Source of the DNA: an uncultured Gammaproteobacteria bacterium | Lineage (GTDB): Bacteria > Patescibacteriota > Microgenomatia > Levybacterales > UBA12049 | Assembly (NCBI GenBank): GCA_964503265.1 | Contig: CAZCYO010000001.1 | Coordinates: 226,064 to 290,063 of the forward strand | Direction of reading: 5' to 3' | DNA: 64,000 bases | Part shown: positions 857-19,016 of the stretch, piece after piece | Position numbering within the stretch: position 1 is the stretch's first letter | How the letters are laid out: each line of letters begins with the position of its first letter | Notes under the pieces: model-generated | Databases searched by the model: none | What the model was told of the DNA's origin: nothing | What the model saw: the letters and a program-made list of their open reading frames with translations, nothing else | Program-made: the position numbers and the translations under genes

Positions 857-948
857 GTGAATAATATGAATGAATTATACGTAAGGACCTCTTATATGTA
901 AACATGCATCTTGTTCTATACTTTACATTTTTATGTATTTCTAATAAG

Positions 949-2022
949 ATGAGCAATATGAAAAAAACACTTATAGTAACCGGGGGATGTGGATTTATTG
1001 GAACCAATATTTGTTTATTGGCAATTAAAAAAGGATATCATGTTGTTGCATTTGATTCTTTTATTCGCCCGCATACTGAAGAGAATGCTGTTATCCTCAA
1101 AGAGTCAGGTGTCGAGATTATCAGGGGAGATGTACGAAGTGAACACGATTTCGAGAGACTACCCAAAAAAGCAAATGGGATTATCCATCTGGCTGCAAAT
1201 CCTGGTATACCATGGTCTATTAAGTGGCCAATGTATGATTTTTCTGTAAACGCTATGGGTACTCTCAACGTATTGGAATTTGCTCGCAAAAACAACTTAA
1301 TTCCAGTTATATTTGCATCAACCAATAAAGTTTACTCAGAAGAAATAAATCTTATTCCAGTTAAAGAAGAAAAAACTAGACATGTCTGGAATTTTGAAAA
1401 AAATGTAAAACCGCCACTGCGAAGCTCAGTTCTTGAAGGTCTTACAGAAAAAGGAGTAAATGAAAATTTCCCTATGGATAGCGCTGGAAAATTCCCACAT
1501 AGTCCTTATGGAGTATCTAAAGCAACAGGGGATCTATATTGTCAAGAATATTATCATATGTATGGTGTTCCGACGGTTGTCAATAGAATGTCTTGTATTT
1601 ATGGTCTATATCAAAAAGGAGTTGAAGATCAGGGTTGGACTGATTGGTTTGTTCAAGCGAAAATACATAATAGGCCACTCAATATTTATGGAGATGGAAA
1701 ACAGGTAAGAGATTGTTTATTTGGTGGAGATGTGGCTGAGTTATATTTATTAGAATTAGAAATGATCGAGAAAGTTAAAGGACAGATTTTTAATGTCGGA
1801 GGTGGAATAACGAATACCATCAGCCTTCTTGAAACAATTACTTACTTAAATGAAAAAGGTGGCAAGCCACTATCTTTATCCTTTAAACCATGGCGCCCTG
1901 CAGATCAAAAGATTTATATCTCTGATATCAGTAAAGTTAAAAAAGCAACAGGTTGGAAACCAAAAACATCAATTGTAGATGGGCTTGATCAAATTTGGAA
2001 TCAATATAATGATAAAAAGTAA
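949..2022 (+). CDS. NAD-dependent sugar epimerase/dehydratase, SDR family, CDP-paratose/tyvelose 2-epimerase-like.
   Basis: Rossmann motif KTLIVTGGCGFIGTN, catalytic YGVSK (YxxxK), length about 360 aa. Start trimmed to MSNMKK just before the Rossmann fold. Confidence 0.75.
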   Translation: MSNMKKTLIVTGGCGFIGTNICLLAIKKGYHVVAFDSFIRPHTEENAVILKESGVEIIRGDVRSEHDFERLPKKANGIIHLAANPGIPWSIKWPMYDFSVNAMGTLNVLEFARKNNLIPVIFASTNKVYSEEINLIPVKEEKTRHVWNFEKNVKPPLRSSVLEGLTEKGVNENFPMDSAGKFPHSPYGVSKATGDLYCQEYYHMYGVPTVVNRMSCIYGLYQKGVEDQGWTDWFVQAKIHNRPLNIYGDGKQVRDCLFGGDVAELYLLELEMIEKVKGQIFNVGGGITNTISLLETITYLNEKGGKPLSLSFKPWRPADQKIYISDISKVKKATGWKPKTSIVDGLDQIWNQYNDKK

Positions 2023-2729
2023 CCCAAATACTTTTTTTTAATTCCATAAAAATACCATCGAATATAATAGCGGATATTACTTTTTAAGGTAAACTGTGAA
2101 GTACCATGCATTCTATCCTGCCATGTAGTTGGTACTTCTGTTATTCTATATCCTAAGTTATAGGCTTTTACTGCTAACTCTAGTGGCATTTCAAACCCTT
2201 CCTTACTTTCGATTTGTATATCTTTCATCACTTTTTTTCTAAAACATTTATATGCGTTTGTTGCATCATTTGTCGGTATTCCTGTTAAAGTCCTCAGTGT
2301 TAGACAACCGAGCCGTGAGAGTAGTCCTTTTATAAGTGGTCCTCCTATATGTTTTCCATCTTTCATATAGCGAGAGGCACAGACGAGATCATATCCTTCA
2401 TTAATTTTTGATACCATTTTATCAATATCTCGTGGATCATCTGATAAATCGGCCATCGATATAACAATAATCTCTGATTTTGCATAATCAATACCAGTTT
2501 TAAGTGCTTTTAACATGCCTTTTCCATCTTTGGTGAAGATGATTGTTAGATTGCTAACGTTATTTTTAATTTTAGTAAGTACTTTGATTGTCGGATCTTT
2601 TTTATCCTGAAGGACAATTATAATTATATGAGGAGTCTTTACATATTTCTCAATACCATTTATTACTTGCTCAATATTTTTCTCTTCATGATAGGTTGGG
2701 AGGATAATTGTAATGGCATTTTTTGTCAT
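2001..2729 (-). CDS. GT2 glycosyltransferase, polyprenol-phosphate sugar transferase (DPM1/ArnC-like).
   Basis: ITIILPTYHEEKNIEQV N-terminal GT-A motif, DLSDDP (DxD-type), about 240 aa, no TM domain. Confidence 0.75.
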   Translation of the reverse strand: MTKNAITIILPTYHEEKNIEQVINGIEKYVKTPHIIIIVLQDKKDPTIKVLTKIKNNVSNLTIIFTKDGKGMLKALKTGIDYAKSEIIVISMADLSDDPRDIDKMVSKINEGYDLVCASRYMKDGKHIGGPLIKGLLSRLGCLTLRTLTGIPTNDATNAYKCFRKKVMKDIQIESKEGFEMPLELAVKAYNLGYRITEVPTTWQDRMHGTSQFTLKSNIRYYIRWYFYGIKKKYLGYFLSLY

Positions 2730-2819
2730 AAAGGCCTCAATTATATGTAATAAATCACAGGAATACAAACTCTTAATACGATGTGTATACTGTATGCAGT
2801 ATTATTTTATAATGAGTAA

Positions 2820-4328
2820 ATGAAAAAATCAGAAAAGGTACTAATTAAGTATAAAAATATACTGACAAAAAATCTTAGTATTGAAAAAATAATCTTTGCA
2901 GCGTGTTCAAGTGTTATTTTCTTTATTCTTCTTTACTTTTATACACACGGTTTTATTCCACATGATGAAGGTTGGATTATTAATCCAGCAGCGCGAATTT
3001 TATATGGAGATATTCCATATCGAGATTTTCATTACATTTATACTCCTGGGGTTGCATATAGTAATGCATTAGTATTTAAATTGTTTGGCATTAGTATTCT
3101 AACTTCTCGTATTTTCACGATGGGAATTGCGTTATTAACAGTGCTTCTTTTTTATAAGATTTCTCTCTCTATTTCTGATAAGCGATACTATTCACTTCTT
3201 CCTATCTCAATTTATCTTACTTGGGGGCCGATGCATATTAATTTCGCATGGCCGATTATCTATACAATTTTTAGTGGATTACTTTGTATTTATCTTCTCT
3301 TAGTTGCAAAGGAAAAAGAAAAAGTTTCTTATTTTTTCTTTGCAGGTGTTGCAGCTGGTCTTACAATCCTTTTTAAACAAAATTTTGGCGCCGCACTGCT
3401 ATGTAACATCATTCTATTTTTTATACTAACTAAGGAGGTTAGGAAAGTGCAATACTTAACTTCTCTTATCGGTGGTGTACTTATTCTCCCGGTTATCATG
3501 TGTATTTATTTTATGATGAACCAGGCATTTATTCCTTTTATTCAAGATATGTACTTTTTTATGATTGATCAAATCTATCTAAAAGGAATGCAAAAAACTC
3601 AATTTATTTACCCGGATATATGGTACAAGCAAATTGCTAAAACATTCTTCTATCTGATACCTCTTATTGTTTCTGGGTATGCAAGTATTATCAGTGTTAA
3701 ATACAATAAATCATTTCTCTTTCTTTCTGGAATGTGCTTCTGGTATTACCTATTTGGTATCCGTCCAACAACTGATTATGTCCATTTAACTGGTCTTATG
3801 GCTTTAATTGGGATACCAATTATTCAAATACTTGTAAGTGATGTTAAACAAATTGTTAAAATAACTCTTTTATTACTTACTGGAATACTTGTTGTGGTTG
3901 GAATATATACCTCTCTTTTCCGAAACTATTATAGATGGGATACACCACTTATATATCAAAATAATTTTATAGAAAACCCCACTGTTCGAATTTCAACAGA
4001 TGCGATTTATATGAAGGTTATTCCTGAAGTGTCGAATTATATAAAAAGTACTACATCACAAAATGATCCGATATTTATCTATACTTTCTCACCTTCTTTT
4101 TATCTCATAACCAATAGGAGAAACCCTACTAAATATATTTTTGCACCCCCACAACTTCTTTCTTTAAACGATCAGGAAGAAATAGTAAAAAACCTTATAG
4201 ATAATAATGTAAAACTTATTTTGGCTGATATTCGACTACAAGATGATCATTCATTTTTATCTCGGTATATTCAGAAACATTATAAAGAAGTGAAGCATGT
4301 GAACAACTATACCTTTTGGAAAAAATAA
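2820..4328 (+). CDS. Polytopic membrane protein, GT-C-fold glycosyltransferase-like (PMT/ArnT-like).
   Basis: More than 10 predicted hydrophobic helices. The first extracytoplasmic loop carries PHDEGW...YGDIPYRDF, an acidic DE motif typical of GT-C enzymes. Confidence 0.5.
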   Translation: MKKSEKVLIKYKNILTKNLSIEKIIFAACSSVIFFILLYFYTHGFIPHDEGWIINPAARILYGDIPYRDFHYIYTPGVAYSNALVFKLFGISILTSRIFTMGIALLTVLLFYKISLSISDKRYYSLLPISIYLTWGPMHINFAWPIIYTIFSGLLCIYLLLVAKEKEKVSYFFFAGVAAGLTILFKQNFGAALLCNIILFFILTKEVRKVQYLTSLIGGVLILPVIMCIYFMMNQAFIPFIQDMYFFMIDQIYLKGMQKTQFIYPDIWYKQIAKTFFYLIPLIVSGYASIISVKYNKSFLFLSGMCFWYYLFGIRPTTDYVHLTGLMALIGIPIIQILVSDVKQIVKITLLLLTGILVVVGIYTSLFRNYYRWDTPLIYQNNFIENPTVRISTDAIYMKVIPEVSNYIKSTTSQNDPIFIYTFSPSFYLITNRRNPTKYIFAPPQLLSLNDQEEIVKNLIDNNVKLILADIRLQDDHSFLSRYIQKHYKEVKHVNNYTFWKK

Positions 4329-4387
4329 CTCATTAACATTACAAAGAATATGATAGAATTGGCCTACAATTCAGCCAAATTAATTCT

Positions 4388-6937
4388 ATGATATCTCCCA
4401 AATTTTCATTTGTTACAACGGTTTATAACGAAGAGAAGACTATTGAGAAATTTCTTGACTCTCTTTTCTTTCAAACTAAAAAAGTTGATGAAATTATTAT
4501 CGTAGATGGAGGAAGCACAGATACTACAGTAGAAAAAATCAAGTTTCAAACCACAAGATTCAAGAAAAAGAATATATCATTTAATTTTTTTGTCAAAAAA
4601 GGAAATAGATCAGTCGGAAGAAATGAAGCGATAAAGCATACAAGTGGTGATATTATTCTTTGCTCTGATGCTGGAAATATTTTAGATAAAAAATGGGTGG
4701 AAAATATTATAAAACCATTTTCTGACGAATCTGTAGATGTCGTAGCGGGATATTATAAAGGAAAAGCATCTAATACTTTTCAGAAATGTTTAATTCCATA
4801 TGTCCTTGTAATGCCAGACAAAGTTGATGAATCTACATTTCTTCCTGCAACACGCTCAGTTGCGTTCACGAAAGCTATATGGAAAAAAGTAGGGAAGTTC
4901 CCAGAAGAATTTAGTCATAACGAAGATTATGTTTTTGCTAATAAACTAAAAGAGAAAAAAGCAAATATGGTATTTGCTCGCGATGCGATTGTATATTGGA
5001 TTCCAAGAAATACCTGGAATGAAGTGTTTGTTATGTTCTTTCGGTTTGCGTATGGAGATACTGAATCGAACATAATTCGAACGAATGTTTTACTTCTTTT
5101 TGCAAGATATTTTCTGGGAGTGTATCTTATTTTTCTTACAATTCTTTATAAGAGTTTATTTGGTATGTTGCTTTTAATTTGCATCATTTTGGTATATGGC
5201 ATTTGGTCAATAACAAAAAATTATCGATATGTGAAAAAAAATAAAGCCCTCTATTTACTTCCATCCATGCAGGTTGTTGCTGATGCAGCTGTTATAAGTG
5301 GGACATCAGTAGCGTGTGTTCGAATACTATTACGGTACAACTATATTTCTTTTGCAAAACGGAATATATTTCTCCTTTTAATGATAAGTATTTATTCATT
5401 TTTGATGATCCTAACGATTCACTCGGGAGCTCCAAATAGTAATCATCCGTACCCTTATAACATGGATGAATGGCACCAGTTACAAGCGGTGCGTGAGACC
5501 TTTATTAAAGGCACTCCAAATACGGCAGGTGCTGCAAATGGAACAATGTTTCACTTTTTCCTATCAGGTTTATATCTAACTCCTTTTGTATTGAGTAAAT
5601 ATATTAGCGTTACAAACATGACGGTTTTTGACTTAGAAATGAGGAGTAAAGTATTTGAGGTTCTACGATTTAGCACAATACTTTGGGGAGTCTTGTCACT
5701 ATTTATGCTTAATAAAATTATTGATTTAACCGGAGCAGCTAAAAAAATAACATTATTCCTTTTTACATTTTGTCCATTATGGTTGAGTTTAAGTGGCTAT
5801 TTTAAATACGATATTGGATTGATGTTTTGGCTACTAGCTGCAGTATATACGCTTATTTATTTTGCAAAAAATCCCACCAATAGAAATTTTATTATTGCAG
5901 CAATCCCATCAGCCCTCTCTTTTGCTGTTAAAGTAAGTGCGATTCCACTTTTCCCAATATTCATAATTTCTTTTTTCTGGTTTCACCCTACATGGAAGCA
6001 GAACATAAAATATTTATTCATTGGAATTTTTATCTATTTAAGTATAACTATTCTCTTTGGAATGCCTGACACGCTATTTGGGAAAGGGAATATTATAGAT
6101 TATTTAATAAATAATATTCTTCAAACGCCAACGACGACAGATAACATTACTTTCGGTATAAATCCATGGGTATATCTTTTCGTTCGTCATTACCCAATTA
6201 TATTTGGACCAGGACTTATCGTAACATTTATTATCTCCCTGTATGTTATTTTATATAATACTCTTAAAGAAGGTCTAAAAAAACATAGCATTGATTTATT
6301 TCTAGTTGTTATGTGTATAGCCTTTATTGCGAGTATCTTACCCTTACAGATTTTGGGAGGAGGGAACAGGAGTTTAGTGATGTTACCGTTTTTTGCATTG
6401 ATTAGTGGGATTGGAATCAATGTGTTAATAAAGCGTAAAAAAAATATAGTATTAGTTGTTTGTTTCATTTTACTAGTTTTTTTTACCCAAGCTTACTACT
6501 CATTTGCTATCGTTTATTTAAAATCAATTCCGTCTCCACAAGAGAATTCCTCATATTGGCTTACTAAACATATTCAGCATCGAGCAATGATAGGACTAGA
6601 AAATATACCAATTTATCAAAATATCCCAGATTTACTGCAAAAAGAATTTTATTTTACTCAATCAAAAGGAGGAAAGAATAATATATTTAATTATGTCGTT
6701 ATTGATAGTAAATCAATAAAACTACCTCCTGTTGTTGTTATAACAAATGATAATATCGAAGAGAAATATATTAAAGCATCTCCTAAAAAAGATTTGATTT
6801 CGCGCTTAAAAAAAGAAAACTACGTTGTTGTTGCTAGGTTTTATCCAGATATTCGCTTTTTAGGACTGAACGATCTTGACTATTCTTTCTCTGCTCTCAT
6901 ACCTTCTCCTTATGTAACATCGGTGTATATTAAATGA
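4388..6937 (+). CDS. Fusion protein: N-terminal GT2 glycosyltransferase, large polytopic GT-C-like membrane domain, C-terminal soluble domain.
   Basis: N-terminus FSFVTTVYNEEKTIEKFL...IIIVDGGSTDTT (GT2). Residues about 230-700 are hydrophobic multi-TM with an MDEW motif. The C-terminal about 150 aa is soluble. 849 aa. Confidence 0.7.
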   Translation: MISPKFSFVTTVYNEEKTIEKFLDSLFFQTKKVDEIIIVDGGSTDTTVEKIKFQTTRFKKKNISFNFFVKKGNRSVGRNEAIKHTSGDIILCSDAGNILDKKWVENIIKPFSDESVDVVAGYYKGKASNTFQKCLIPYVLVMPDKVDESTFLPATRSVAFTKAIWKKVGKFPEEFSHNEDYVFANKLKEKKANMVFARDAIVYWIPRNTWNEVFVMFFRFAYGDTESNIIRTNVLLLFARYFLGVYLIFLTILYKSLFGMLLLICIILVYGIWSITKNYRYVKKNKALYLLPSMQVVADAAVISGTSVACVRILLRYNYISFAKRNIFLLLMISIYSFLMILTIHSGAPNSNHPYPYNMDEWHQLQAVRETFIKGTPNTAGAANGTMFHFFLSGLYLTPFVLSKYISVTNMTVFDLEMRSKVFEVLRFSTILWGVLSLFMLNKIIDLTGAAKKITLFLFTFCPLWLSLSGYFKYDIGLMFWLLAAVYTLIYFAKNPTNRNFIIAAIPSALSFAVKVSAIPLFPIFIISFFWFHPTWKQNIKYLFIGIFIYLSITILFGMPDTLFGKGNIIDYLINNILQTPTTTDNITFGINPWVYLFVRHYPIIFGPGLIVTFIISLYVILYNTLKEGLKKHSIDLFLVVMCIAFIASILPLQILGGGNRSLVMLPFFALISGIGINVLIKRKKNIVLVVCFILLVFFTQAYYSFAIVYLKSIPSPQENSSYWLTKHIQHRAMIGLENIPIYQNIPDLLQKEFYFTQSKGGKNNIFNYVVIDSKSIKLPPVVVITNDNIEEKYIKASPKKDLISRLKKENYVVVARFYPDIRFLGLNDLDYSFSALIPSPYVTSVYIK

Positions 6938-6958
6938 CTCAGCTGATATACTAATTGT

Positions 6959-8200
6959 ATGGGTTATAAATCAAATGCACTAAAAGGTGTTTCATGGATT
7001 ACCTTACTTCGAGGTCTCACAAGAATTGTAACGATTCTCCGTCTTTCTGTATTAGGAAGACTTCTTACACCGGCTGAATTTGGATTTTTCGGTATCGCCT
7101 CACTCCTTCTTTCGCTTCTTGAAATACTTACTGAAACTGGAATAAATGTGTTTTTAGTCCAGGAAAAAAAAGATTTAAAAGAATATATTAATTCTGCCTG
7201 GATTGTTTCCCTTCTGCGAGGAATTATTCTGACAATAGTTATTATTCTTACGGCTCCTATTATTACAAGTTTTTTCAATTCTCCTGAGGCGTTAAATATC
7301 ATATTACTTATTTCTATCGTTCCATTTATTCGAGGGTTTATTAACCCTGAAATAATTACGTATCAAAAAGACTTATCTTTTGATAAAGAATTTCGACTAC
7401 GATTCGTGTTATTTCTAGTTGATGTAGGTGTCTCAATTACTGTAGGGTTTATAACTCGGAGCGCTGAAAGTTTCGTATGGGGATTAATTGCATCTGCGCT
7501 CATTGAGGTGATTCTTTCTTATGTTCTTTTCCCTCTAAGACCAAAGCTTAAAGGCGAACTGGAACAGATAAAACTTATTTTAAGACGGGGATTTTGGGTA
7601 ACGGTAACGGGTATATTTTCTTATTTCGCGGATAATGGAGATAATATTACTGTTGGTAAGTTGTTGGGATCTGGATCACTTGGTATTTATCAAATTGCAT
7701 ATAAATTTTCTACACTTCCAATCAGCGAAATAACCAACGTCGTAAATCAAGTTATTTTCCCTGTATATACCAAGTTTCATAATGATAGAGAGAGATTGAT
7801 AAAAGCTTTTATAAAAGTAACTTTCGCTAGTTCACTAGTCGGAATTGTTTTAGGTAGTGGAATCTTTTTACTTGCTCAACCTATTATTCTTATTTTTATG
7901 GGTGTACAATGGGTAGCTGCTGTTCCCGTGATACAAGTTCTCTCGATTTACGGTATATTGAGAACCATTTTTGGAAGTTTTTCACCTCTTTTTCTTGCTG
8001 TGGGAAAGCAAGATTTTGTGGCTCGAATGCTCTTTTTCCGTGTTGTGACACTATTAGTTAGTATTGTGCCACTAGTTCAGATGTATGGGATGATAGGTGC
8101 TGCATATGCAATGGTTCTTTCAGTACTCATTGAGATACCTATCATCATATTTCTTACCCGTTCTGTTTTTCAAAAGCATAATTTCCCCTCTCCCGCTTAA
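6959..8200 (+). CDS. Polysaccharide biosynthesis protein, Wzx-like flippase (MOP superfamily).
   Basis: 413 aa, about 12 hydrophobic helices, typical flippase architecture. Lies inside the glycosyltransferase cluster. Confidence 0.6.
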   Translation: MGYKSNALKGVSWITLLRGLTRIVTILRLSVLGRLLTPAEFGFFGIASLLLSLLEILTETGINVFLVQEKKDLKEYINSAWIVSLLRGIILTIVIILTAPIITSFFNSPEALNIILLISIVPFIRGFINPEIITYQKDLSFDKEFRLRFVLFLVDVGVSITVGFITRSAESFVWGLIASALIEVILSYVLFPLRPKLKGELEQIKLILRRGFWVTVTGIFSYFADNGDNITVGKLLGSGSLGIYQIAYKFSTLPISEITNVVNQVIFPVYTKFHNDRERLIKAFIKVTFASSLVGIVLGSGIFLLAQPIILIFMGVQWVAAVPVIQVLSIYGILRTIFGSFSPLFLAVGKQDFVARMLFFRVVTLLVSIVPLVQMYGMIGAAYAMVLSVLIEIPIIIFLTRSVFQKHNFPSPA

Positions 8201-8237
8201 GTTAGAATGTTTATGCTTGCTCTGTGTTTAACTAAGT

Positions 8238-9389
8238 ATGTGTAGTATAATTTCTGAAGTTTATATGTCACGTGATTTACAGATTAATAGAAAAGAACGA
8301 ATAGCCTTTTTTCATGAGTTACATGTAGGCGGGGCACGAAGAGCGTGTGATGAATTTGCAACTGCGTTAAAAAATAAATACTTTGTCGATTTATACTATG
8401 TTGATGAAGATGCAGATAAGACTTCAACGAATATTTTTGACCGAGTCTACTTTTCTCCCTTTATTCCTAAACTGTGGAAAGGTGGAAACTGGAAAGTTAA
8501 ATTATATAAAGATACAATTGAACTCTATAATCTGTATAGATTACATAAGAAAATTGCAAAAAAAATTAATAATAAAGATTACTCATACGTTTTTATTCAT
8601 GGTTCAAAGTATACTCAAGCCCCGTTTCTTCTTCGTTTCGTAAACCATAAGAAAATTTATTACTGCCAAGAACCATTGCGAATTGCATATGAAGAGTATT
8701 TTGCAATCGATAAAAACCTTAGTTTTCCTAAGAAAGTATATGAATCAACAATTCGGTATGTCAGAAAGATAATTGATAAAAAGAATGCTCTCTCTGCAGA
8801 TATATTGCTTGCTAACTCAACTTTTACTAAAGAAAATATCTCTCATGCATTTGATCGAGAAGCAGTTGTATGTCATATGGGTGTTAAAACTGAAGTCTTT
8901 TATCCTGAGAAGAAGAAAAAAGATATTGATGTCTTATTTATTGGTTCATATGACTTTATCGATGGTTATTCGTTATTAGTTGACTCCCTCCAGGTATTGA
9001 AAGATAAAAAAGTAAAAGTAAAATATATTACTCGAGAAACAGAATGGATTAGTGATGATGCTATACTTCGTGATTATTACAATCGATCTAAATCTGTGAT
9101 AGCTTTTGGATATAAAGAACCTTTTGGCCTTATTCCCCTTGAAGCGATGAGTTGTGGTACACCAGTTATTGCTTTAAATGAGGGTGGATATAAGGACTCA
9201 GTCATTGAGGGAAAGACTGGGTTTCTTGTTCCTAGAGACAAAAAAGTTATTGCTGAGAGAATAGCATATCTCATTTCTCATCCGACTATAGTTCGTTATA
9301 TGGGTAAAAATGCGAGGCAGCAGATACTTAACCATTGGACATGGTCAGCTAGTTCAACTTACTTAGAAAGTCTATTAATACATGAATAG
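8238..9389 (+). CDS. GT4 (GT-B fold) glycosyltransferase.
   Basis: C-terminal EPFGLIPLEAMSCGTPVIALNEGGYKDSVIEGKTGFLV is the canonical GT4/GT1 E-x7-E region. Confidence 0.8.
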   Translation: MCSIISEVYMSRDLQINRKERIAFFHELHVGGARRACDEFATALKNKYFVDLYYVDEDADKTSTNIFDRVYFSPFIPKLWKGGNWKVKLYKDTIELYNLYRLHKKIAKKINNKDYSYVFIHGSKYTQAPFLLRFVNHKKIYYCQEPLRIAYEEYFAIDKNLSFPKKVYESTIRYVRKIIDKKNALSADILLANSTFTKENISHAFDREAVVCHMGVKTEVFYPEKKKKDIDVLFIGSYDFIDGYSLLVDSLQVLKDKKVKVKYITRETEWISDDAILRDYYNRSKSVIAFGYKEPFGLIPLEAMSCGTPVIALNEGGYKDSVIEGKTGFLVPRDKKVIAERIAYLISHPTIVRYMGKNARQQILNHWTWSASSTYLESLLIHE

Positions 9390-11655
9390 TATCAATCCCA
9401 CTCTTTCTATTATTATCGTACATTATCATGTGGAACATGAATTAGTTGATTTGTTGCAGTCACTTGGAACTTCCCGGGAGCAGGAGATTATTGTAGTAGA
9501 TAATGACGAAAAGCCATTCATAGAGAAGCAGTTGACCAAGCAGTTTCCGTCCGTTATTTATCTGAAAAATAAAAAAAATCTTGGATTTGGAGTAGCAAAT
9601 AATATTGGCTCTAGAGTTGCAAAAGGAAAATATCTTTTTTTCATTAATCCCGACACCATAGTTGAAAAAGGTACAGTTGAAAAACTAATAACATTTTTAG
9701 ATAATCACAAAAAAGCTGGCGCTGTAGCGCCACTTCTTTACCACCCTGACGGAACTATTTTTGAGAAGCAAGGTGTTAAGACACTTACACCTCTTCGTGC
9801 ACTATTTTCAACTTCTCTTATTCATCGAATATGGCCAAATAATCCGATTGCACGTATGTATTGGAATGCTTCCTGGAAAAAAAAGACAGTTAAAGAAGTT
9901 GGTGCCTTACCTGGGACTGCATGTATGATAAGAAAAGAGTTGTTCGACGCAGTAGGCGGTTTTGATGAGAAATTCTTTTTATACTTTGAAGAATTTGATC
10001 TATGCCAAAGAATTAATCAGGGGGGATTATCGTTATATATGATTCCTGATACTAAAGTCATACATTTATGGGGTGTTTCAACTGGACAAAAAGATGATAA
10101 AGACCTTATCTTTAAGGAAAGCCAAGAGTATTATTTTAGAAAATATTATGGTTATGTTATAGCAAAGATTCTTACGACTTTCTTAACATTTGATAAATAC
10201 TCCCTACTGTTACTTCTTCTCTTACTACTCGGATTATTTCTGAGGACATACAGGATTACTGAATTATTTATGTTTATTGGGGATTTCGGATGGTTTTACT
10301 TATCTGCCTGGGATATGGTAACCAAAGGAATAATACCGCTAGTGAGTATTCCCTCCTCTGTCGTCTGGCTTCACCAGGGGCCACTCGCTACGTATATGAT
10401 GGCATTTGCATTATGGGCAGGGAGAATGAACCCTGTGGCTCCAGCACTTCTTTTTTCAGTTATTGATATGGTAACTATTTATTTCGTTTTTTTGCTGGGA
10501 AAAAAAATACGGAACGTAGAAACAGGAATAGTAGCTGCGCTTCTTTATGCTACGTCACCGTTAGTGTTAATCAATGTTCGAATGCCATATCACACGGCAA
10601 TTATTCCGTTTTTTGCTTGTAGTGTTATTTTAATGACGTTACTGGTATTGGAAAAGAAAAGATATTACTTCTGGCTTTTTTTCCTATCAGGACTGCTCAT
10701 ACAATTAGAGCTTTCCAATGCCATCGTTATGCTAATCTTTATGTTTCTTTTTATTTTCTATCGAGAAGAGATTACACTTCGTGTTTCTATTATTCGCGAG
10801 AGTGTATGTGGAATGTTACTGGGGATTTCCCCTTTTATTCTCTATGATGTAACCCATCATTTTACCCAAACACTTGGGTTTCCCTTATGGGTGCTTAATC
10901 GCGTTAGGTTATTCTTAGGTCTTACTACTAGTGGAAACGCCACTACTCATAATCTTCCACAAGTATTTGTGGTCTTGTGGGAGCATATTGCAAGAATTAT
11001 ATTTCCGTACTCAGAAATAATCGTTGCCATCGTTATACTGCTTGCTGTTACTATAATAGGAAGAAAAATAGTAACTACAAAGAAAGCGCTGTTACATAAT
11101 AAATCTTTTATTTTATTATTATTGTGGATCATTGTTCCATTTGTTAGTTTCATAGTTCATGCGGCGCCGGGAGATGCTTATTTTCCATTTCTCTTCCCAG
11201 CCATTATTCTGGGCGTAGCATATGCTTTCTCAGAGCTTTCTAACAATAAACGTATATTCACGTTATTTGTGGTTGTTTTTTTAAGTGTTTTTAATGCAGG
11301 GTACACTCTTTCACAAGATTATTTTCTTTCCACAGAAACTGGTGCTCATTATATGCCACCACATGGATATGGTTTTGGGCCAGCTTTTTATATTCAGAAT
11401 ACAGTTGCAAATAAGGTAACGAAGGATGCTGATGGTAACTCTATTCGTTTACGGGTAGGAGGATATCAAGGAAGTGTTAAAACAGGTGGGGATCAGTTTA
11501 AATATCTGCTTATGCAAAAAGGAGTGAAGCTTTCCTCCAATGCATCGTTAACGTATACAATTTATGAATCAAAGCGTGATATTCCACCAAATGAATCTGT
11601 CTTTTATCAAAATAATTACTATTTTGTAACAAAGACAACTAATGTTAATTTATAG
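9382..11655 (+). CDS. Fusion protein: N-terminal GT2 glycosyltransferase plus polytopic GT-C-like membrane domain.
   Basis: LSIIIVHYHVEHELVDLLQSL...IIVVDNDEKP and FINPDT (GT2), followed by about 400 aa of TM helices and a short C-terminal soluble tail. 757 aa. Confidence 0.7.
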   Translation: MNSINPTLSIIIVHYHVEHELVDLLQSLGTSREQEIIVVDNDEKPFIEKQLTKQFPSVIYLKNKKNLGFGVANNIGSRVAKGKYLFFINPDTIVEKGTVEKLITFLDNHKKAGAVAPLLYHPDGTIFEKQGVKTLTPLRALFSTSLIHRIWPNNPIARMYWNASWKKKTVKEVGALPGTACMIRKELFDAVGGFDEKFFLYFEEFDLCQRINQGGLSLYMIPDTKVIHLWGVSTGQKDDKDLIFKESQEYYFRKYYGYVIAKILTTFLTFDKYSLLLLLLLLLGLFLRTYRITELFMFIGDFGWFYLSAWDMVTKGIIPLVSIPSSVVWLHQGPLATYMMAFALWAGRMNPVAPALLFSVIDMVTIYFVFLLGKKIRNVETGIVAALLYATSPLVLINVRMPYHTAIIPFFACSVILMTLLVLEKKRYYFWLFFLSGLLIQLELSNAIVMLIFMFLFIFYREEITLRVSIIRESVCGMLLGISPFILYDVTHHFTQTLGFPLWVLNRVRLFLGLTTSGNATTHNLPQVFVVLWEHIARIIFPYSEIIVAIVILLAVTIIGRKIVTTKKALLHNKSFILLLLWIIVPFVSFIVHAAPGDAYFPFLFPAIILGVAYAFSELSNNKRIFTLFVVVFLSVFNAGYTLSQDYFLSTETGAHYMPPHGYGFGPAFYIQNTVANKVTKDADGNSIRLRVGGYQGSVKTGGDQFKYLLMQKGVKLSSNASLTYTIYESKRDIPPNESVFYQNNYYFVTKTTNVNL

Positions 11656-13024
11656 GATATATCATACGTAGAAATTTCATAATGCCTTGTGAATTGGTAT
11701 TAACTCCTAAATCGTACGTAGGGGACTGATAAAATCCTAGGAAATAAATGATAAGAGAAAAATTTATAAGTATAAATAGAAAACAAATAATATACATTGT
11801 TTTTGTATTAAATCGATTTTTTAGATAATCAAATAAACATGCTATTCCAAATGAAAGGAAGGGAAGCGTAGAGGTTAACATTCTTACGCTAAATGATTCT
11901 CCTTGTTGCCACGCAGACCAACTAGCTATGAGGTAATACTCTACTACAAATAAGGTAATGAAATACCATCCAAGAGATTTTTCTTTTTTACTAAACGGTA
12001 CTAACCCTAGAATTCCTATGATAACTCCTGGTGACCACCAGAGAAGTCCAATTTTAGAGTTAATAAGTAGCTCAAGCAAATGGGGATTGAGTAAATAAAA
12101 CCCTTCTTTACCGGCAATATATGGACTACGCGTGAACGTCCCGTACATAAGATACCAAACATACATTTGAATCGAGAAAACTAATAGGAAGCCTGCAAAG
12201 AGTACTAGTATATAAAGAAAGTTAGCTACAATGGCACGAAAATTATGTGATTGTATTTTTTGCACTGCATGTTTTCCTATCGCGATAACTGGAAGAAGCA
12301 AAAATATACCCTCTTGTGTCCTAGTCATTGCCATATATCCAACAGTCATGCCAATTGTAAAATAGAGTAATTTTGAAGGATTTGAAATACTCCGTATAAA
12401 TAATAATAAAAAAATACAACTAAGGAGAAATGTTAATGGAAGTGAGTTAACGACATCGATAGCAGCGTAATAGAAAAGAAATGTCGCAAACGTCAGAAAA
12501 ATAATTGTCAACATTGTTACCGATTTACTAAAATATTTTTTAAGCTGAAGAGAAAGTAGATATAGTCCGAGAGAAACAAATAGTACGTTCCATACGCCAG
12601 TTATAATTTGGTATATATCGGAATAACCCAAATTGCTAATATTTGGATTAAAGAAACGTAGTGTATTTGATATACTATCTGCAAATGTAAAAGCTGGAAG
12701 CCATGAGAGAGGAGCTCCCACAGGATATCTGTTCACTGTATAACCAGTTTTTGTATAGTCATTGACGTAACCTAGGGGTTCTTCTACCGCTCTATTATTA
12801 TTTTCGTGAGAATAGTGATGTCCGAGTTCATTTTTAAATTGTATGTCATGATCTTTATAAATTGATCTCGTGAATGCATAGTAAAAAATTCCATCACCAT
12901 AGACTGCTTGACCGACAATTATATAGTGAAGAAGAAAAACTCCAACTAAAAAAGGGAAGATACCAAAGAATATTAATCGCTTAAAAAGCATCTTTTTATT
13001 ATACTGTGGTAGAATTAAATACAC
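11645..13024 (-). CDS. Polytopic membrane protein, GT-C-like. Converges on the previous gene with an 11-bp tail-to-tail overlap.
   Basis: 459 aa, many hydrophobic helices, extracytoplasmic loop YGDGIFYY... Confidence 0.45.
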   Translation of the reverse strand: MYLILPQYNKKMLFKRLIFFGIFPFLVGVFLLHYIIVGQAVYGDGIFYYAFTRSIYKDHDIQFKNELGHHYSHENNNRAVEEPLGYVNDYTKTGYTVNRYPVGAPLSWLPAFTFADSISNTLRFFNPNISNLGYSDIYQIITGVWNVLFVSLGLYLLSLQLKKYFSKSVTMLTIIFLTFATFLFYYAAIDVVNSLPLTFLLSCIFLLLFIRSISNPSKLLYFTIGMTVGYMAMTRTQEGIFLLLPVIAIGKHAVQKIQSHNFRAIVANFLYILVLFAGFLLVFSIQMYVWYLMYGTFTRSPYIAGKEGFYLLNPHLLELLINSKIGLLWWSPGVIIGILGLVPFSKKEKSLGWYFITLFVVEYYLIASWSAWQQGESFSVRMLTSTLPFLSFGIACLFDYLKNRFNTKTMYIICFLFILINFSLIIYFLGFYQSPTYDLGVNTNSQGIMKFLRMIYPIN

Positions 13025-13027
13025 CAG

Positions 13028-13789
13028 ATGAACACATCAGTTATAATTATAACGAAAAACGAAGAAAAGAATATCGAAGAGTGTATTAAAACACTTGAAG
13101 GATACGATGAAATTATTGTGGTAGATGATAATTCATCGGATGCAACTGCAAAAATTGCTAAAAAACTTGGTGCCCAAGTATATGAGCATTCACTTGAGGG
13201 TGATTTTGCCGCCCAGCGGAATTTTGGGCTACAGAAAGCGAAAGGATCATGGATTCTTTTTATTGATGCAGACGAACGGATGAGCCCACAGCTTAATTAC
13301 GAAATTCATAGTCAGATTAATGATGCTATGAGTATTTACAGTGGGTTTTATATTCGGCGAATTGATAAAATGTGGGGAAAGACTATAACACATGGTGAAA
13401 GTAGTCAAACGAAATTTCTACGACTTGCTAAAAAGGGAAGTGGAGACTGGATAGGAATGGTGCACGAGCGATGGATGGTAAACGGAAAAGTTGGGATGCT
13501 TAAACATCCACTCATGCATTTTCCCCATCAAACGATTCGTGAATTTGTTACTGAGATTAATTATTATACTGATTTAAGAGCAGGGGAACTTAATGATAGA
13601 AAAGTAAAAGTTCGAAGACGTGATATTTTCCTTTTTCCATTAGGTAAATTTATTCAAAACTATTTTTTTCGATTAGGAATACTCGATGGGTTAATTGGAT
13701 TACTTCAAGCGATTCTCATGAGTTTTCATTCGTTTTTAGTTCGAGGTAAGCTTTGGTTGCTACAAAATAAAAACTATGAGCAGCTATAA
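13028..13789 (+). CDS. GT2 glycosyltransferase (LPS-core-type, WaaE/KdtX-like).
   Basis: SVIIITKNEEKNIEECIKTL...IIVVDDNSSD, FIDADE (DxD). Confidence 0.75.
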   Translation: MNTSVIIITKNEEKNIEECIKTLEGYDEIIVVDDNSSDATAKIAKKLGAQVYEHSLEGDFAAQRNFGLQKAKGSWILFIDADERMSPQLNYEIHSQINDAMSIYSGFYIRRIDKMWGKTITHGESSQTKFLRLAKKGSGDWIGMVHERWMVNGKVGMLKHPLMHFPHQTIREFVTEINYYTDLRAGELNDRKVKVRRRDIFLFPLGKFIQNYFFRLGILDGLIGLLQAILMSFHSFLVRGKLWLLQNKNYEQL

Positions 13790-14483
13790 AGGGCTACCAA
13801 CACTTGAAGTACTTGAAGGAGCTTGGAGATATAATACTTGGATATCTGAAGCCATACTTCCACATCTTCACAGTCCTATCCTTGAGGTTGGGGCTGGGAC
13901 CGGAAATATAAGTTCAATAGTATTGCGGCATCACTCTCTGTATGTTTCAGATGTAGATGAATATCTTGTAAATACACTAAAAAAGAAACTATCAAAAAAT
14001 GGAAATGTTAATTGTGAAAAACTAGATATAACAAAAAATAATTCCCGTTTCACTAATTATTTTTCTTCACTTTACGCAATTAATGTACTTGAACATATAG
14101 ACGACGATTTACAAGCTTTAAAAAACATGTATAGTCTACTTAATGATGGTGGTACTTTGGTGATACTTGTTCCAGCAAAACAAAATGTATATTCTCGACT
14201 TGATAAGGTACTTGGGCACTATCGAAGATATGAAAAAGAAGGATTGAAAATAAAAGTAGAAGAAGCAGGCTTTATAGTAAAAAAAATATATTTTTTTAAT
14301 TTTCTTGGTCTTATTAGCTGGAGAATTCGTGATCTCTTTGATAAGAGATCTATTCATCTATCTTCTACGCAGATAGCATTATTTGATACACTTGTGCCGT
14401 TATTAAAAAGAGTTGAAAAATATTTTCATATTCCAATCGGAATTTCACTAATTGTTGTTGCGAGGAAGCCGAATGAAAAATAA
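13776..14483 (+). CDS. Class I SAM-dependent methyltransferase.
   Basis: ILEVGAGTGNISS glycine-rich motif I. Overlaps the upstream GT2 gene by 14 nt. Confidence 0.75.
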   Translation: MSSYKGLPTLEVLEGAWRYNTWISEAILPHLHSPILEVGAGTGNISSIVLRHHSLYVSDVDEYLVNTLKKKLSKNGNVNCEKLDITKNNSRFTNYFSSLYAINVLEHIDDDLQALKNMYSLLNDGGTLVILVPAKQNVYSRLDKVLGHYRRYEKEGLKIKVEEAGFIVKKIYFFNFLGLISWRIRDLFDKRSIHLSSTQIALFDTLVPLLKRVEKYFHIPIGISLIVVARKPNEK

Positions 14484-14582
14484 GGGTATAATCATTTTTC
14501 TTATTTGGAGCATCAGTATCTTTTTTTTATATTTCTTTTTTCTTTTCCAGCGTAATATTAGTTCTATAACTACTATTTTAAA

Positions 14583-16322
14583 ATGAAAAATATTTGGTTT
14601 AAAATATTTATTTCTTGTATATTTTTTCTTGGACTATCAACGTATCTCACGTATCCTCTTATTTTTCATTTCACTGATAGTGTAACTAGTCTCGGTGATG
14701 AGCTTCTTATAATATGGATACAAAACTGGGTAATTCACTCATTGCAAACAAATATATGGGGAATTTTTCAAGCAAATATATTTTATCCTTATCATAATTC
14801 TCTAGCATTTTCTGAGACATTTATTACCACAAGTGTATTAGCATATCTCCCATATCTGTTAACTAAGCAGCCGGTAATTACCTTGAATTTCACACTTTTT
14901 ACGTCGACATTTCTTTTTGGTTTTTCTGTTTACTTACTCTGTTTTTATGTGACAAAAAAGAATGCTATTGCATTGGTATGTGGAACACTGGCTATATGCT
15001 CACCAGTGGTGTTAGACAAATCAGTACACTTGCAAGTACTTTCAATTTCGTTTGTACTATTTGCATTACTGGCATACATAGCATTCCTAAAGCGTAAAAA
15101 GATTTCCTATTTTCTTTTATTTCTTTTCTTTTTTCTTTTACAAGTCTATAACAGTTTTTTACCTGGTTACTTTATTATTTGTAGTTCAGTTATTCTAACG
15201 TATTTTTTTGTTCAATATAAGAAAGCTTCGATTACTATTTTTTGGAATAAATACATTGTTATTTCTACTCTATTTTGTGTAATGCTTTGTCTGCCAGTTA
15301 TAGTCCCATACTATCAAGTATCAAAAGAATTTAATTTTGTTCGTGATATCCGAGAATCGATTCATTTGGGACTTCAGCCTGAAGATCTTCTTTATGGGAG
15401 TCAGTATACTCGATTAGCTCCTTTTCTCACGAAGAATTTGAGTTTCTTACATCAATCAACTATTGAACTAAAAAATGGATATTTGGGGGTAGTATTGACG
15501 CTGTTAAGTATTATAGCAGTAGGGTATGGATGTAAAAAATGGAAAAAAAAGGACCCGCTGTCAAATGGGTTTCTCTCGATTGCCTTATTTGGGTTGATAT
15601 TAAGTTTCGGCCCATTTCTCCATCTTGGAAGACACACAATTCATACACCCTTTCCAATTCCTCTTCCTTACGCTCTATTTTATGCTCTTGCACCAGGTTT
15701 TAAAGGATTTCGAAATGCAGCTCGATGGGAAATGTTATTTGTTATAGGGATCACTGTCGTTATCGCAATTATGCTTTCAGATTTTCTCAAAAACAAAACT
15801 AAAATAGTTGTATGTATCATTCTTTTTAGTTTATTAGTAGGAACTGTTATTGAATATGATTTTCCTAGGCATCTTCAGCCTATCCCTTCAATTCCAAAAG
15901 TAAACCAATGGCTTACAACGAGATTAGATACGAGTGTTGTAATAGAAATGCCGATATATGCATGGTATATGCATCCATATGCAACTCAGGAGCTGTTTAG
16001 AGATTATTATTCAGTCTCGAACTTTCTTCCGTTAGTAAATGGTGCCAGTGGGTATTCACCAATTCCTTGGGAAAAAAACTCCAAGCAACTGATGATAGAA
16101 TTTCCCTATGAGCCTTCGTTTGTTAGAATGAAAAAAATTGGTATAAATTATATTATTTTTCATAAAAATGAATTTGACATGCTTAATAAAAATAATTTCA
16201 TGATTGATAGTAAACGAATAGATGATGGAGAAACAATACTCAATCAGCTAAAAAATAATAGAAATGTTACCTTAGTGAAAGAATTCCCTGGTGATTATGT
16301 TTTCAAAATAAATTATGATTAG
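14583..16322 (+). CDS. Polytopic membrane protein with C-terminal soluble domain, GT-C-like.
   Basis: About 400 aa hydrophobic N-terminal region with an LGDELL acidic loop motif. About 150 aa soluble C-terminus. Confidence 0.45.
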   Translation: MKNIWFKIFISCIFFLGLSTYLTYPLIFHFTDSVTSLGDELLIIWIQNWVIHSLQTNIWGIFQANIFYPYHNSLAFSETFITTSVLAYLPYLLTKQPVITLNFTLFTSTFLFGFSVYLLCFYVTKKNAIALVCGTLAICSPVVLDKSVHLQVLSISFVLFALLAYIAFLKRKKISYFLLFLFFFLLQVYNSFLPGYFIICSSVILTYFFVQYKKASITIFWNKYIVISTLFCVMLCLPVIVPYYQVSKEFNFVRDIRESIHLGLQPEDLLYGSQYTRLAPFLTKNLSFLHQSTIELKNGYLGVVLTLLSIIAVGYGCKKWKKKDPLSNGFLSIALFGLILSFGPFLHLGRHTIHTPFPIPLPYALFYALAPGFKGFRNAARWEMLFVIGITVVIAIMLSDFLKNKTKIVVCIILFSLLVGTVIEYDFPRHLQPIPSIPKVNQWLTTRLDTSVVIEMPIYAWYMHPYATQELFRDYYSVSNFLPLVNGASGYSPIPWEKNSKQLMIEFPYEPSFVRMKKIGINYIIFHKNEFDMLNKNNFMIDSKRIDDGETILNQLKNNRNVTLVKEFPGDYVFKINYD

Positions 16323-17916: not shown

Positions 17917-19016
17917 AAATAATACTCTATTTAATTGCAATTTTACTAGCGCTTATCGTTAGTAAAGTATTTTTTCAAGATTCCTATTTGGACTTCCGAG
18001 TGTATTATGAAGCTGCTATAAATACATTACAGTATGGTGATCCTTACTCCACGACAGATCCAAACATGTCGTATTTATACCCTCCTTTAACAATTATTCT
18101 TTTTTTACCTCTTACTGTTTTTTCTGTGACGAGTGCAGAAAAAATATGGCTTGTTTTATCAATACTTCTTTTAATTATTTCATTATGGATACTATTTAAA
18201 TTACTTCGTATTTCGTGGAGATCTTATGAGGGACTAGCGTATAGTATATGCTGTTTAGTTTTTTTTCCATTTAAATTCACACTTGGCATGGGACAAATCA
18301 ATATCGTTATTCTTTTTTTTCTTATTCTTTTTTTATATTTCTATGAAAAACAGAAAACATTGTCAGGATTATTTTTAACAGTCGCTATTTTTATCAAAAT
18401 CTCACCCCTTCTATTTCTTGGCGAACTTTTTCTGAGAAAACAGTGGAATATCCTGTTTGGGGTGGTGATCACGGCACTTTGTTTAAGTATTATGTCACTC
18501 TTTATGTTTCCACTTCCGACTGCATATTATGTTTCTTCGATCCTTCCGAGTATTTCACAAGCTTGGCCAACTGCATATTTCAATCAATCACTTACCGGAT
18601 TTTTAGGGAGATTGCCTGTTATGGCATATATGCTTATTATCGCTCGTAGCCTAATTGTTTTAGGAGTACTTGTTATAACAAGTGTGATAGTTAAAAAATA
18701 TGAAAAAGAACGAAATCAACTGCTTGTACTGAGTAGTATCTTTCCAGTACTTTTGATTATTAGTAGCTTTTCATGGCAACATCATTTTATCCTGCTTATC
18801 CCGTCTTATATTATTCTGAGTCATGTGGTCGTTTGCCGTAACGTATTTAATCGCCAAACTATAGTAATTCTCATAAGTATTTTGATAAGTTATCTTTTAG
18901 TTGGGTATAATATAAAGCAACCTGAACTCATGCCCGTACTAGTACAGTCACATGTCTTTTATGGAACCGTAATGCTATGGATAGTGCATTTGTATGTTAT
19001 TCAGAAAGAGTTATGA
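17901..19016 (+). CDS. Polytopic membrane protein, GT87/DUF2029-like mannosyltransferase family.
   Basis: 371 aa, multi-TM, size and hydropathy typical of DUF2029 proteins. Confidence 0.4.
   Translation: MEKRIKIILYLIAILLALIVSKVFFQDSYLDFRVYYEAAINTLQYGDPYSTTDPNMSYLYPPLTIILFLPLTVFSVTSAEKIWLVLSILLLIISLWILFKLLRISWRSYEGLAYSICCLVFFPFKFTLGMGQINIVILFFLILFLYFYEKQKTLSGLFLTVAIFIKISPLLFLGELFLRKQWNILFGVVITALCLSIMSLFMFPLPTAYYVSSILPSISQAWPTAYFNQSLTGFLGRLPVMAYMLIIARSLIVLGVLVITSVIVKKYEKERNQLLVLSSIFPVLLIISSFSWQHHFILLIPSYIILSHVVVCRNVFNRQTIVILISILISYLLVGYNIKQPELMPVLVQSHVFYGTVMLWIVHLYVIQKEL

Follow-up and report, generated by a model that had tools for sequence, protein, structure and literature searches.

What is a glycosyltransferase of the GT2 family doing in the same polypeptide as a large polytopic membrane domain, and is such a protein real in the first place? 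The question is raised by a gene on the forward strand (9382..11655) of a 64,000-nucleotide stretch of DNA, hereinafter the window, which spans positions 226,064 to 290,063 of contig CAZCYO010000001.1 (GenBank assembly GCA_964503265.1) from a bacterium that is listed as an uncultured member of the Gammaproteobacteria and that GTDB places in the Patescibacteriota (Microgenomatia; Levybacterales; UBA12049). An earlier examination of the nucleotide sequence by itself (the sequence-only reading) described the product as a GT2 domain followed by a polytopic membrane domain; the fusion is confirmed by the present analysis, which adds what that description missed, namely, that the membrane domain apparently is a glycosyltransferase in its own right, with the GT-C fold. 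In our assessment, the gene very probably encodes a real, conserved, two-domain GT2–GT-C enzyme, and the two glycosyltransferase active sites of this single polypeptide most likely reside, judging by the predicted structure, on opposite faces of the membrane.

The gene is an intact open reading frame (ORF) with an ATG start and a product of 757 amino acids, and the motifs quoted by the sequence-only reading (HYHVEHELVDLL...VVDNDEKP and FINPDT) are indeed present in its translation. Because the DNA contains about 35% guanine plus cytosine (GC) and the other frames are rich in stops (51 and 55 in the other two forward frames across the gene, compared with only the terminal one in the coding frame), an open frame of this length is far beyond chance expectation. 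Among 5.8 billion proteins searched, 621 homologues were identified, more than 100 of which are full-length and share the Pfam architecture of the query; it is these proteins, rather than the occurrence of two fusions in one locus to which the sequence-only reading appealed, that most strongly support its contention that the architecture is functional and not an artifact. Nearly all of the best 120 homologues align with the query over almost its entire length, with 35-65% identity, and carry both the GT2 and the PMT_2 Pfam matches, and all except two, of about 1,100 residues, are ~680-770 residues long. The few homologues that bear an organism name belong to Candidatus Levybacteria, Microgenomates and Patescibacteria, and the database labels are generic ('glycosyltransferase', 'hypothetical protein', 'GT2 family glycosyltransferase/ArnT-like'); the 757-residue sequence itself had no exact counterpart in the protein records. 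In a scan of one genome per species, full-length matches were found in Levyibacteriota, Microgenomates, Gottesmanbacteria, Chisholmbacteria and other Patescibacteria assemblies; outside the Patescibacteria (Anaerolineae, cyanobacteria, Ignavibacteria and others), the GT2 part alone was matched, at 29-37% identity.

The N-terminal domain matches the GT2 family (PF00535) at residues 9-157 with 67 bits (cutoff, 23.3), and the hallmark residues of this family, namely, D40-N41, N89-P90-D91, E203-E204-x-D206 and H228, are readily identified. In an alignment of 63 full-length sequences, from which all conservation estimates given here were derived (with identities expressed relative to the query), N41, N89, D91, E204, D206 and H228 are invariant, and the N89-P90-D91 triad occupies the position of the DXD motif, of which it is an NPD variant. 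The fold, the acidic motif that binds metal and nucleotide and the downstream catalytic acidic residue that characterize GT-A enzymes are all found in this domain, which is predicted to be metal-dependent. It begins at residue 8, not preceded by a membrane helix, and is closed by two helices (residues 240-271, K254 being invariant) that lead into the first membrane helix (residues 272-289, from the secondary structure of the model and hydropathy).

The subtype of the GT2 domain bears directly on its role. The top Foldseek matches of the full-length AlphaFold model (predicted local distance difference test score, pLDDT, 93.6; predicted template modelling score, pTM, 0.90) were ppGalNAc-T2/T12, TarS and a Leptospira glycosyltransferase, and in a profile search of the PDB sequences, the whole domain (positions 5-235) was covered solely by chains of the ppGalNAc-T type; the match to GlfT2 was weak and partial (positions 68-246, E = 0.03-0.4), and DPMS, GtrB and ArnC matched only the first 110-130 residues (residues 3-132). 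Among the NCBIfam models, MftF was the best match of the GT2 half, with the rhamnosyltransferase TIGR01556, EpsD, HpsN and GlfT1 also detected, all under their cutoffs, and the scan yielded no match to the ArnC, PgfS, AglJ or PpgS models. The WbbL/GlfT1/HpsN/EpsD-type proteins are Leloir GT2 enzymes that extend lipid-linked glycans; the fused domain aligns with their NCBIfam models over the greater part of the model length (HpsN at positions 1-246 of 317), with 36-46 bits against family cutoffs of 200-425, and they share with the fused domain the acidic motif and the histidine that follows it, but they are not fused to a GT-C domain, and the fused GT2 belongs to none of these named families.

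The same locus provides an internal control in the form of a stand-alone GT2 (ORF 2001..2768), which renders a contrast of subtypes meaningful. This protein matches DPMS (5mlz) over residues 17-238 (E = 1.8e-20), that is, over the whole catalytic domain, as it does ArnC, and GtrB over most of it, and its NCBIfam matches are AglJ, PgfS, dolichyl-phosphate hexose transferase, ArnC and PpgS; the fused GT2, by contrast, fails to show similarity to enzymes of the DPMS/GtrB/ArnC type across its whole catalytic domain. In sequence and predicted fold, the fused GT2 resembles the WbbL/GlfT/HpsN/ppGalNAc-T-like branch, not the donor-making DPMS/GtrB/ArnC type, and the stand-alone protein is a likely polyprenyl-phosphate sugar synthase that would supply donors to the GT-C enzymes of the locus.

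For the membrane half, the link to solved structures comes from the comparison of folds. A match to PMT_2 (PF13231) covers residues 333-487 (E = 1.7e-5, 25.6 bits, gathering cutoff 26.1), and most of the homologues carry a precomputed match to the same Pfam family. Given that GT2-type GT-A enzymes occupied the entire Foldseek list of the full-length model, residues 258-757 were modelled separately (pLDDT 89.7). The best match of this model was ArnT with undecaprenyl phosphate (5f15, E = 4e-6, template modelling (TM) scores 0.56/0.53), and all 21 matches at E <= 1e-3 were chains of ArnT, ALG9/ALG12 or oligosaccharyltransferases (AglB/PglB/STT3); further matches included Pmt4, DPY19, AftB and AftD. 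Neither the single sequence nor a profile of 63 sequences found a GT-C chain when searched against the PDB. Taken together with the invariant residues described below, the structural matches indicate that the membrane half adopts, at the level of the model, the GT-C fold and is a second glycosyltransferase.

In GT-C enzymes, the N-terminus is cytoplasmic, and the first external loop bears an essential acidic motif a short distance past the first membrane helix (PMC6801728). The position of Asp301 (DNA 10282-10284), which is invariant in the 63 sequences and lies 12 residues past the first membrane helix, conforms to this pattern; the loop that contains it carries the signature FIGDxG[WR][FD]Y..ARD..IPLVGIPSS..WLHQGP, and D311 is kept in 54 of the 63 sequences. 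Additional conserved motifs of the GT-C half are RMPYHT (residues 400-405), QLELSN (with E443), LYD (with D489) and PGxAYFP (residues 596-602); His404, Thr405, Glu443, Ala599 and Tyr600 are invariant as well, and Asp489 is nearly so (Asp in 62 of the 63). Because the N-termini of GT-C enzymes face the cytoplasm (PMC6801728), a cytoplasmic GT2 domain at this end of the protein is topologically compatible with the GT-C fold. The C-terminal alpha/beta domain (residues 645-757), the least conserved part of the protein (29.5% mean identity), is predicted to be outside the cytoplasm, as in ArnT and PglB. The two putative catalytic halves, in contrast, are conserved to the same extent (mean identity to the query of 41.7% for residues 1-239 and 41.5% for residues 272-644), and by sequence, the invariant residues of each appear where they would be expected in an active enzyme.

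The halves also occur apart. A profile of the GT-C half retrieved 829 cluster representatives at E <= 1e-30, and the best 150 of these include 62 of fused size (match start ~255-265) and 70 of stand-alone size (start ~1-20), with the FIGD signature present in most of the stand-alone-size GT-Cs. Stand-alone homologues of the GT2 domain match up to residues 255-304, mostly ~268, with most of the ends in the range 255-290, and the stand-alone GT-Cs start at the first membrane helix, so the fusion point is clean. In the related locus L048 and in an acidobacterial contig (L050), a stand-alone GT-C is encoded directly behind a GT4 gene, and in L044, there is a split version, with a homologous 307-residue GT2 (29% identity, E = 1e-34) directly upstream of a 496-residue GT-C. 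By these arrangements, the GT2 domain is an accessory to a core formed by the GT4 and the GT-C. Some members of the family are 100-350 residues longer than the fusion described here (P0057, 1092 residues; P0083, 1118; P0122, 878; P0134, 859), which suggests extra domains; in P0122 and P0134, the GT-C part begins at residue 376-395.

The genomic context fits a role in the assembly of a lipid-linked glycan. The GT4 gene upstream overlaps the start codon of the fusion by 8 bp, which suggests that both genes belong to the same operon. When 29 related loci with colinear fusions were compared, 18 proved to have a GT4 homologue immediately upstream of the fusion, and 22-23 had one within 3 kb; a GT2 of ~250 residues directly follows the fusion in 16, and the order Wzx, GT4, fusion, small GT2 recurs, in whole or in part, across the relatives. 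The putative synthase (2001-2768), the Wzx-type flippase (6959-8200) and the GT-C candidates, namely, the fusion itself (9382-11655), in which the fold was tested, and the genes with PMT_2 or GT87 Pfam matches, are encoded together, that is, the locus contains the parts of a three- or four-component transmembrane glycosylation system.

On balance, we lean, with some reserve, towards a division of labour in which the GT2 domain extends a glycan at the inner face of the membrane, Wzx flips it and the GT-C domain carries out a transfer at the outer face. At the inner face, the GT2 domain would add a residue from a nucleotide sugar to a glycan linked to polyprenyl phosphate, and the neighbouring GT4 and small GT2 enzymes would help to build the same lipid-linked glycan. 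Wzx, encoded two genes upstream, would then move the lipid-linked intermediate across the membrane. At the outer face, the GT-C domain would employ Asp301 in the first external loop and pass a sugar to an acceptor in the cell envelope; that its donor is linked to polyprenyl phosphate and used on the extracytoplasmic side we infer from the fold and from the presence of the DPMS/GtrB-like synthase and Wzx in the locus, and this donor might be either a monosaccharide provided by the product of 2001-2768 or the flipped oligosaccharide itself. In the model, the two helices of the linker tether the GT2 domain directly to the first helix of the multi-helix GT-C domain. With the domains fused, an inner-face and an outer-face reaction of a single pathway would be held together and at a constant ratio.

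Several observations weigh against this interpretation. The PMT_2 score is borderline, 0.5 bit short of the Pfam gathering threshold, and the likeness to the solved GT-C structures is moderate (TM ~0.5-0.6, 10-13% identity); the geometry of the two domains relative to each other and the exact number of membrane helices are provisional. The assignment of the GT2 subtype leans on weak similarity of sequence and fold, with NCBIfam scores far below the cutoffs, and the catalytic roles, across all members of the family, are deduced from sequence and predicted structure. Furthermore, the stand-alone members of the GT-C subfamily function without a fused GT2, and the two activities of the fusion might target different glycans.

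Conceivably, the fused GT2 could itself be a polyprenyl-phosphate sugar synthase, similar to GtrB, ArnC or DPM1, that feeds its own GT-C domain once the product is flipped; such a protein would be the covalent counterpart of the ArnC+ArnT or GtrB+GtrC pairs. In multi-component systems, a GT2 and a GT-C are the classic pairing of donor synthase and transferase (PMC10821137), helices 240-268 are predicted to hold the GT2 at the membrane surface, and in a locus with many candidate GT-Cs and one clear DPMS-like synthase, extra synthases would be useful. However, DPMS, GtrB and ArnC match the N-terminal, nucleotide-binding half of the domain alone, while its C-terminal half bears the EExD...H signature, and the similarity that extends over the whole domain is to the ppGalNAc-T type, with the rhamnosyltransferase and HpsN among the NCBIfam models; moreover, the stand-alone protein 2001-2768 does score as DPMS/GtrB/ArnC-like in the same test, and the GT-C subfamily has many members with no GT2 domain at all. 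Because of the subtype of the GT2 domain and the presence of a separate DPMS-like gene, we consider this self-supply unlikely, if still worth keeping in mind. A self-contained, two-sided machine, in which the GT2 would make or extend a polyprenyl-linked intermediate and hand it directly to its own GT-C, and in which the membrane domain might help to move the lipid-linked sugar across, so that synthesis, translocation and transfer would all be coupled in one protein, appears distinctly doubtful: the conserved helices at residues 240-271 and the pTM of the complete model would be in keeping with a fixed domain–domain interface, but the conserved Wzx two genes upstream argues against self-flipping.

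The two domains could also be coupled loosely, with the GT2 acting on an unrelated cytoplasmic acceptor (a protein, a peptide or a small molecule), the GT-C working independently and the fusion merely anchoring the GT2 to the membrane or ensuring co-regulation. The polypeptide GalNAc-transferases are the best structural matches of the GT2 domain, the mycofactocin glycosyltransferase MftF is its best NCBIfam match, and many genomes encode the GT-C subfamily without it. Yet the resemblance to ppGalNAc-T and MftF is of a general sort, common to this whole branch of the GT-A fold, and scores far below the cutoffs, the fusion is stable over more than 100 homologues, with halves that are equally conserved, and the gene lies within a membrane-glycan operon, its start overlapping the upstream GT4, all of which makes such a loose association rather improbable. 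A processive synthase of the BcsA/hyaluronan synthase/PgaC kind, in which the polymer produced by the GT2 would leave the cell through a channel formed by the membrane domain, is superficially suggested by the order of a GT2 and then many membrane helices and by weak NCBIfam matches to PgaC/IcaA in the N-terminal 110 residues. This possibility is very remote, and we reject it on account of the GT-C fold match and the missing QxxRW motif, which is absent from the 757-residue fusion; further points against it are that no membrane helix lies ahead of the GT2, that the membrane domain matches GT-C enzymes and not synthase channels and that its first external loop carries an invariant acidic residue. 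As for an artefact, that is, two genes that seem to be one because a frameshift or a stop codon was overlooked or the assembly is wrong, the source probably is a metagenome-assembled genome (MAG), and the gene does contain homopolymers (A8 runs at 9571, 9877 and 10500, as well as T7 runs). None of these runs is located at the domain junction, which the sequence-only reading had singled out as the place where a frameshift should be sought; the longest homopolymer at DNA 10080-10320 is 5 nucleotides, and nothing prone to frameshifting was found there. Notwithstanding the A8 and T7 runs, the frame is unbroken and its product aligns colinearly with the homologues, the same colinear protein (730-770 residues) comes from more than 100 independent assemblies, and AlphaFold models the whole chain with high confidence; with the architecture of the homologues and the sequence of the junction as they are, we reject the artefact, to which we give practically no credence.

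How does the fusion compare with known systems? In GtrA/GtrB/GtrC, CsbB–GtcA–YfhO, GacI/J/K/L and ArnC/ArnT, too, a cytoplasmic GT2 works together with a flippase and with a GT-C that, on the extracytoplasmic side, uses a sugar linked to polyprenyl phosphate, and the locus described here encodes all three roles. In these multi-component systems, however, two distinct polypeptides serve as the GT2 and the GT-C, and the former is of the GtrB/DPM1 type, whereas here a GT2 of another subtype is fused and the GtrB-like enzyme is separate. Ppm1 of Mycobacterium tuberculosis likewise unites a GT2 and a polytopic membrane domain in one natural protein, which belongs to a pathway of polyprenyl-phosphate sugars; its membrane domain is an Lnt-like acyltransferase, not a GT-C, and its GT2 is a DPM1-type synthase. 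ArnT of Cupriavidus metallidurans (PDB 5f15/5ezm; PMT_2 family), the best structural match of the C-terminal 500 residues, shares with the fusion the cytoplasmic N-terminus, the acidic residue in the first external loop and the C-terminal extracytoplasmic domain, but differs in that it has no fused GT2, shows ~10% identity and escapes sequence profile searches; the acceptor of ArnT is lipid A. The closest described logic is that of the lactococcal polysaccharide pellicle (PSP) system (WpsA–WpsJ), in which an oligosaccharide is begun by a GtrB-like GT2 with undecaprenyl monophosphate as the carrier and lengthened by cytoplasmic glycosyltransferases; it then crosses the membrane by way of a Wzx-type flippase, and its polymerisation and attachment fall to GT-C enzymes (PMC10821137). 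The gene content of our locus fits this scheme, and the likeness is one of gene content; the PSP components are all separate proteins, in contrast to the GT2–GT-C fusion.

By the family assignments of its genes, the first 20 kb of the window can be recognized as a putative glycan locus, the features of which are compiled in Table 1, along with the domains of the fusion.

Table 1. Genes, domains and sequence features of the putative glycan locus, with coordinates in the window
Feature	Coordinates	Strand	Basis
SDR epimerase/dehydratase	904-2022	+	family matches
DPMS/GtrB/ArnC-like GT2, 255 residues	2001..2768	-	PDB profile match, NCBIfam
PMT_2 protein	2820-4328		Pfam
First GT2+PMT_2 fusion, 849 residues	4388..6937	+	Pfam; orthologue in L002
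Wzx-type (MOP family) flippase	6959..8200	+	Polysacc_synt_3, E = 5e-69; MOP flippase, E = 3e-54
GT4 glycosyltransferase	8238..9389	+	Pfam
Whole gene, 757-residue GT2–GT-C fusion	9382..11655	+	ORF, homologues, AlphaFold model
GT-A fold GT2 catalytic domain, residues 1-239, predicted cytoplasmic	9382..10098	+	PF00535, invariant residues, Foldseek
Two linking helices, residues 240-271 (240-256 charged, 258-268 hydrophobic)	10099..10194	+	secondary structure of model, hydropathy
Predicted GT-C fold membrane domain, residues 272-644	10195..11313	+	PMT_2, domain model, Foldseek, invariant residues
C-terminal alpha/beta globular domain, residues 645-757	11314..11652	+	secondary structure of models, per-domain identity
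Tail-to-tail overlap, 11 bp, TTAATTTATAG	11645..11655		fusion gene / convergent gene
Convergent polytopic membrane protein, 459 residues	11645..13024	-	weak LA_3751/LA_3752 match
GT2, 253 residues, conserved downstream partner	13028..13789	+	Pfam
Methyltransferase	13776-14483		family scan
Polytopic protein, 579 residues, without Pfam/NCBIfam match	14583-16322	+	
PMT_2 protein	16315-17916		Pfam
GT87 protein	17901-19016		Pfam
Wzy_C protein	18977-20221		Pfam
Ig-like protein	20208-20915	-	Glucodextran_B domain

The locus contains a second fusion of the same general kind, the first in gene order. The sequence-only reading had held that the protein under study is not a recent duplicate of it, and we concur: the two share 24% identity over 111 residues, all in the GT2 N-terminus (E = 0.004), and a profile of the membrane domain of the second fusion found nothing significant in the membrane part of the first. 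A recent duplication is accordingly rejected, there being no similarity beyond the family level.

The same reading gave the length of the tail-to-tail overlap with the convergent gene exactly, 11 bp, and regarded such packing as unusual. The fusion ends with TAG at 11653-11655, and the TAA stop of the convergent gene is the reverse complement of 11645-11647. In this genome, such an overlap turns out to be nothing special, as each of the three convergent gene pairs within the first 21 kb has one (22 bp at 2001-2022, 11 bp at 11645-11655 and 14 bp at 20208-20221), and the last of these, between the Wzy_C and Ig-like genes, recurs in the relatives L001 (17 bp) and L002 (14 bp). The 11 bp span just the non-conserved C-terminal tails of the two proteins. 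No terminator-like site was found at the overlap, and its RNA fold is not unusual (z-score -0.76), so a terminator or a special RNA structure at this place is rejected. The convergent gene product has a sub-cutoff NCBIfam match to the LA_3751/LA_3752 putative glycosyltransferase family (E = 1.6e-10), and a Pfam scan of it gave no match. This gene is found in L002 (a relative at 62% identity), where the overlap is 17 bp, and is absent from L001, L084 and L085; the relatives at 65% and 59% identity are among those that lack it, and it was detected beside the fusion in one of the 29 related fused loci. By this distribution, it appears to be a variable insertion rather than a part of the conserved cassette.

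Several other proteins of the locus deserve mention. The SDR protein matches its families on either side of an insert that has no match, at approximately residues 24-158 and 186-362. Among solved structures, the small GT2 encoded after the fusion is closest to GmaR, a flagellin glycosyltransferase of Listeria (E = 1.6e-19), followed by the peptide S-glycosyltransferase SunS, so it might, as far as these similarities go, target a protein or peptide instead of a lipid-linked glycan; in L084 (3677-4427), the closest relative (65% identity), the corresponding 250-residue GT2 is called as ORFs of 137 and 128 residues, either a frameshifted pseudogene or an assembly error. The 579-residue polytopic protein has homologues with 44-57% identity in the same position in several relatives and is possibly another GT-C-like enzyme; a comparison of the GT-C profile of the fusion with this protein and with the convergent one (11645-13024) yielded nothing significant. 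The Ig-like protein, which is kept at the end of the locus in many relatives, shows weak matches to a Ca2+-stabilised adhesin repeat and to the pilus protein PamR of the Candidate Phyla Radiation (CPR), and could be a surface or glycosylated protein tied to the pathway. On the neighbouring genes, NCBIfam gave generic sub-cutoff matches only, and the scanned proteins of the locus did not include a phosphoglycosyl transferase.

The GC content is 0.31-0.35 in the glycan locus (1-20000) and 0.38-0.44 in 20001-64000, with a step at ~20 kb that coincides with the start of apparent housekeeping genes; by synteny with the relatives, the ORFs beyond the locus appear to be an ATP synthase operon. The glycan locus is itself syntenic in the relatives and adjoins the ATP synthase genes in L001 and L002 as well, and its low GC content need not indicate recent acquisition. 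Farther downstream, a protein with a GGDEF diguanylate cyclase domain (33501-34487, minus strand) and a MurT/GatD-like pair (38369-40410, minus strand) are encoded; the latter, which consists of a MurT ligase-family protein and a CobB/CobQ-type glutamine amidotransferase, suggests lipid II amidation and would fit a Gram-positive-type peptidoglycan in this Patescibacteria genome. Many TPA MAGs titled 'uncultured Gammaproteobacteria bacterium' (L005, L013, L016-L021, L024 and others) carry full-length Levybacteria-type fusions with the same synteny, and the taxonomic labels of these records look wrong.

Both domains of the fusion and the logic of the pathway are of known kinds, and no established concept is changed by the present findings. 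The covalent fusion, for which we found no paper in the open-access literature that describes a GT2–GT-C protein, and the Patescibacteria-centred GT-C subfamily with a signature of its own are uncharacterised. To our knowledge, bacteria of the Candidate Phyla Radiation are uncultivated and their cell surfaces are essentially uncharacterised; the conserved locus of Levybacteria and Microgenomates, with its several GT-C-type genes, probably builds a major surface glycan. The covalent link between an inner-face and an outer-face glycosyltransferase would serve as a 'Rosetta stone' that pairs a cytoplasmic and an extracytoplasmic step of one pathway, and the fusion may offer a compact structural target for investigating how a lipid-linked intermediate passes between the two faces of the membrane.

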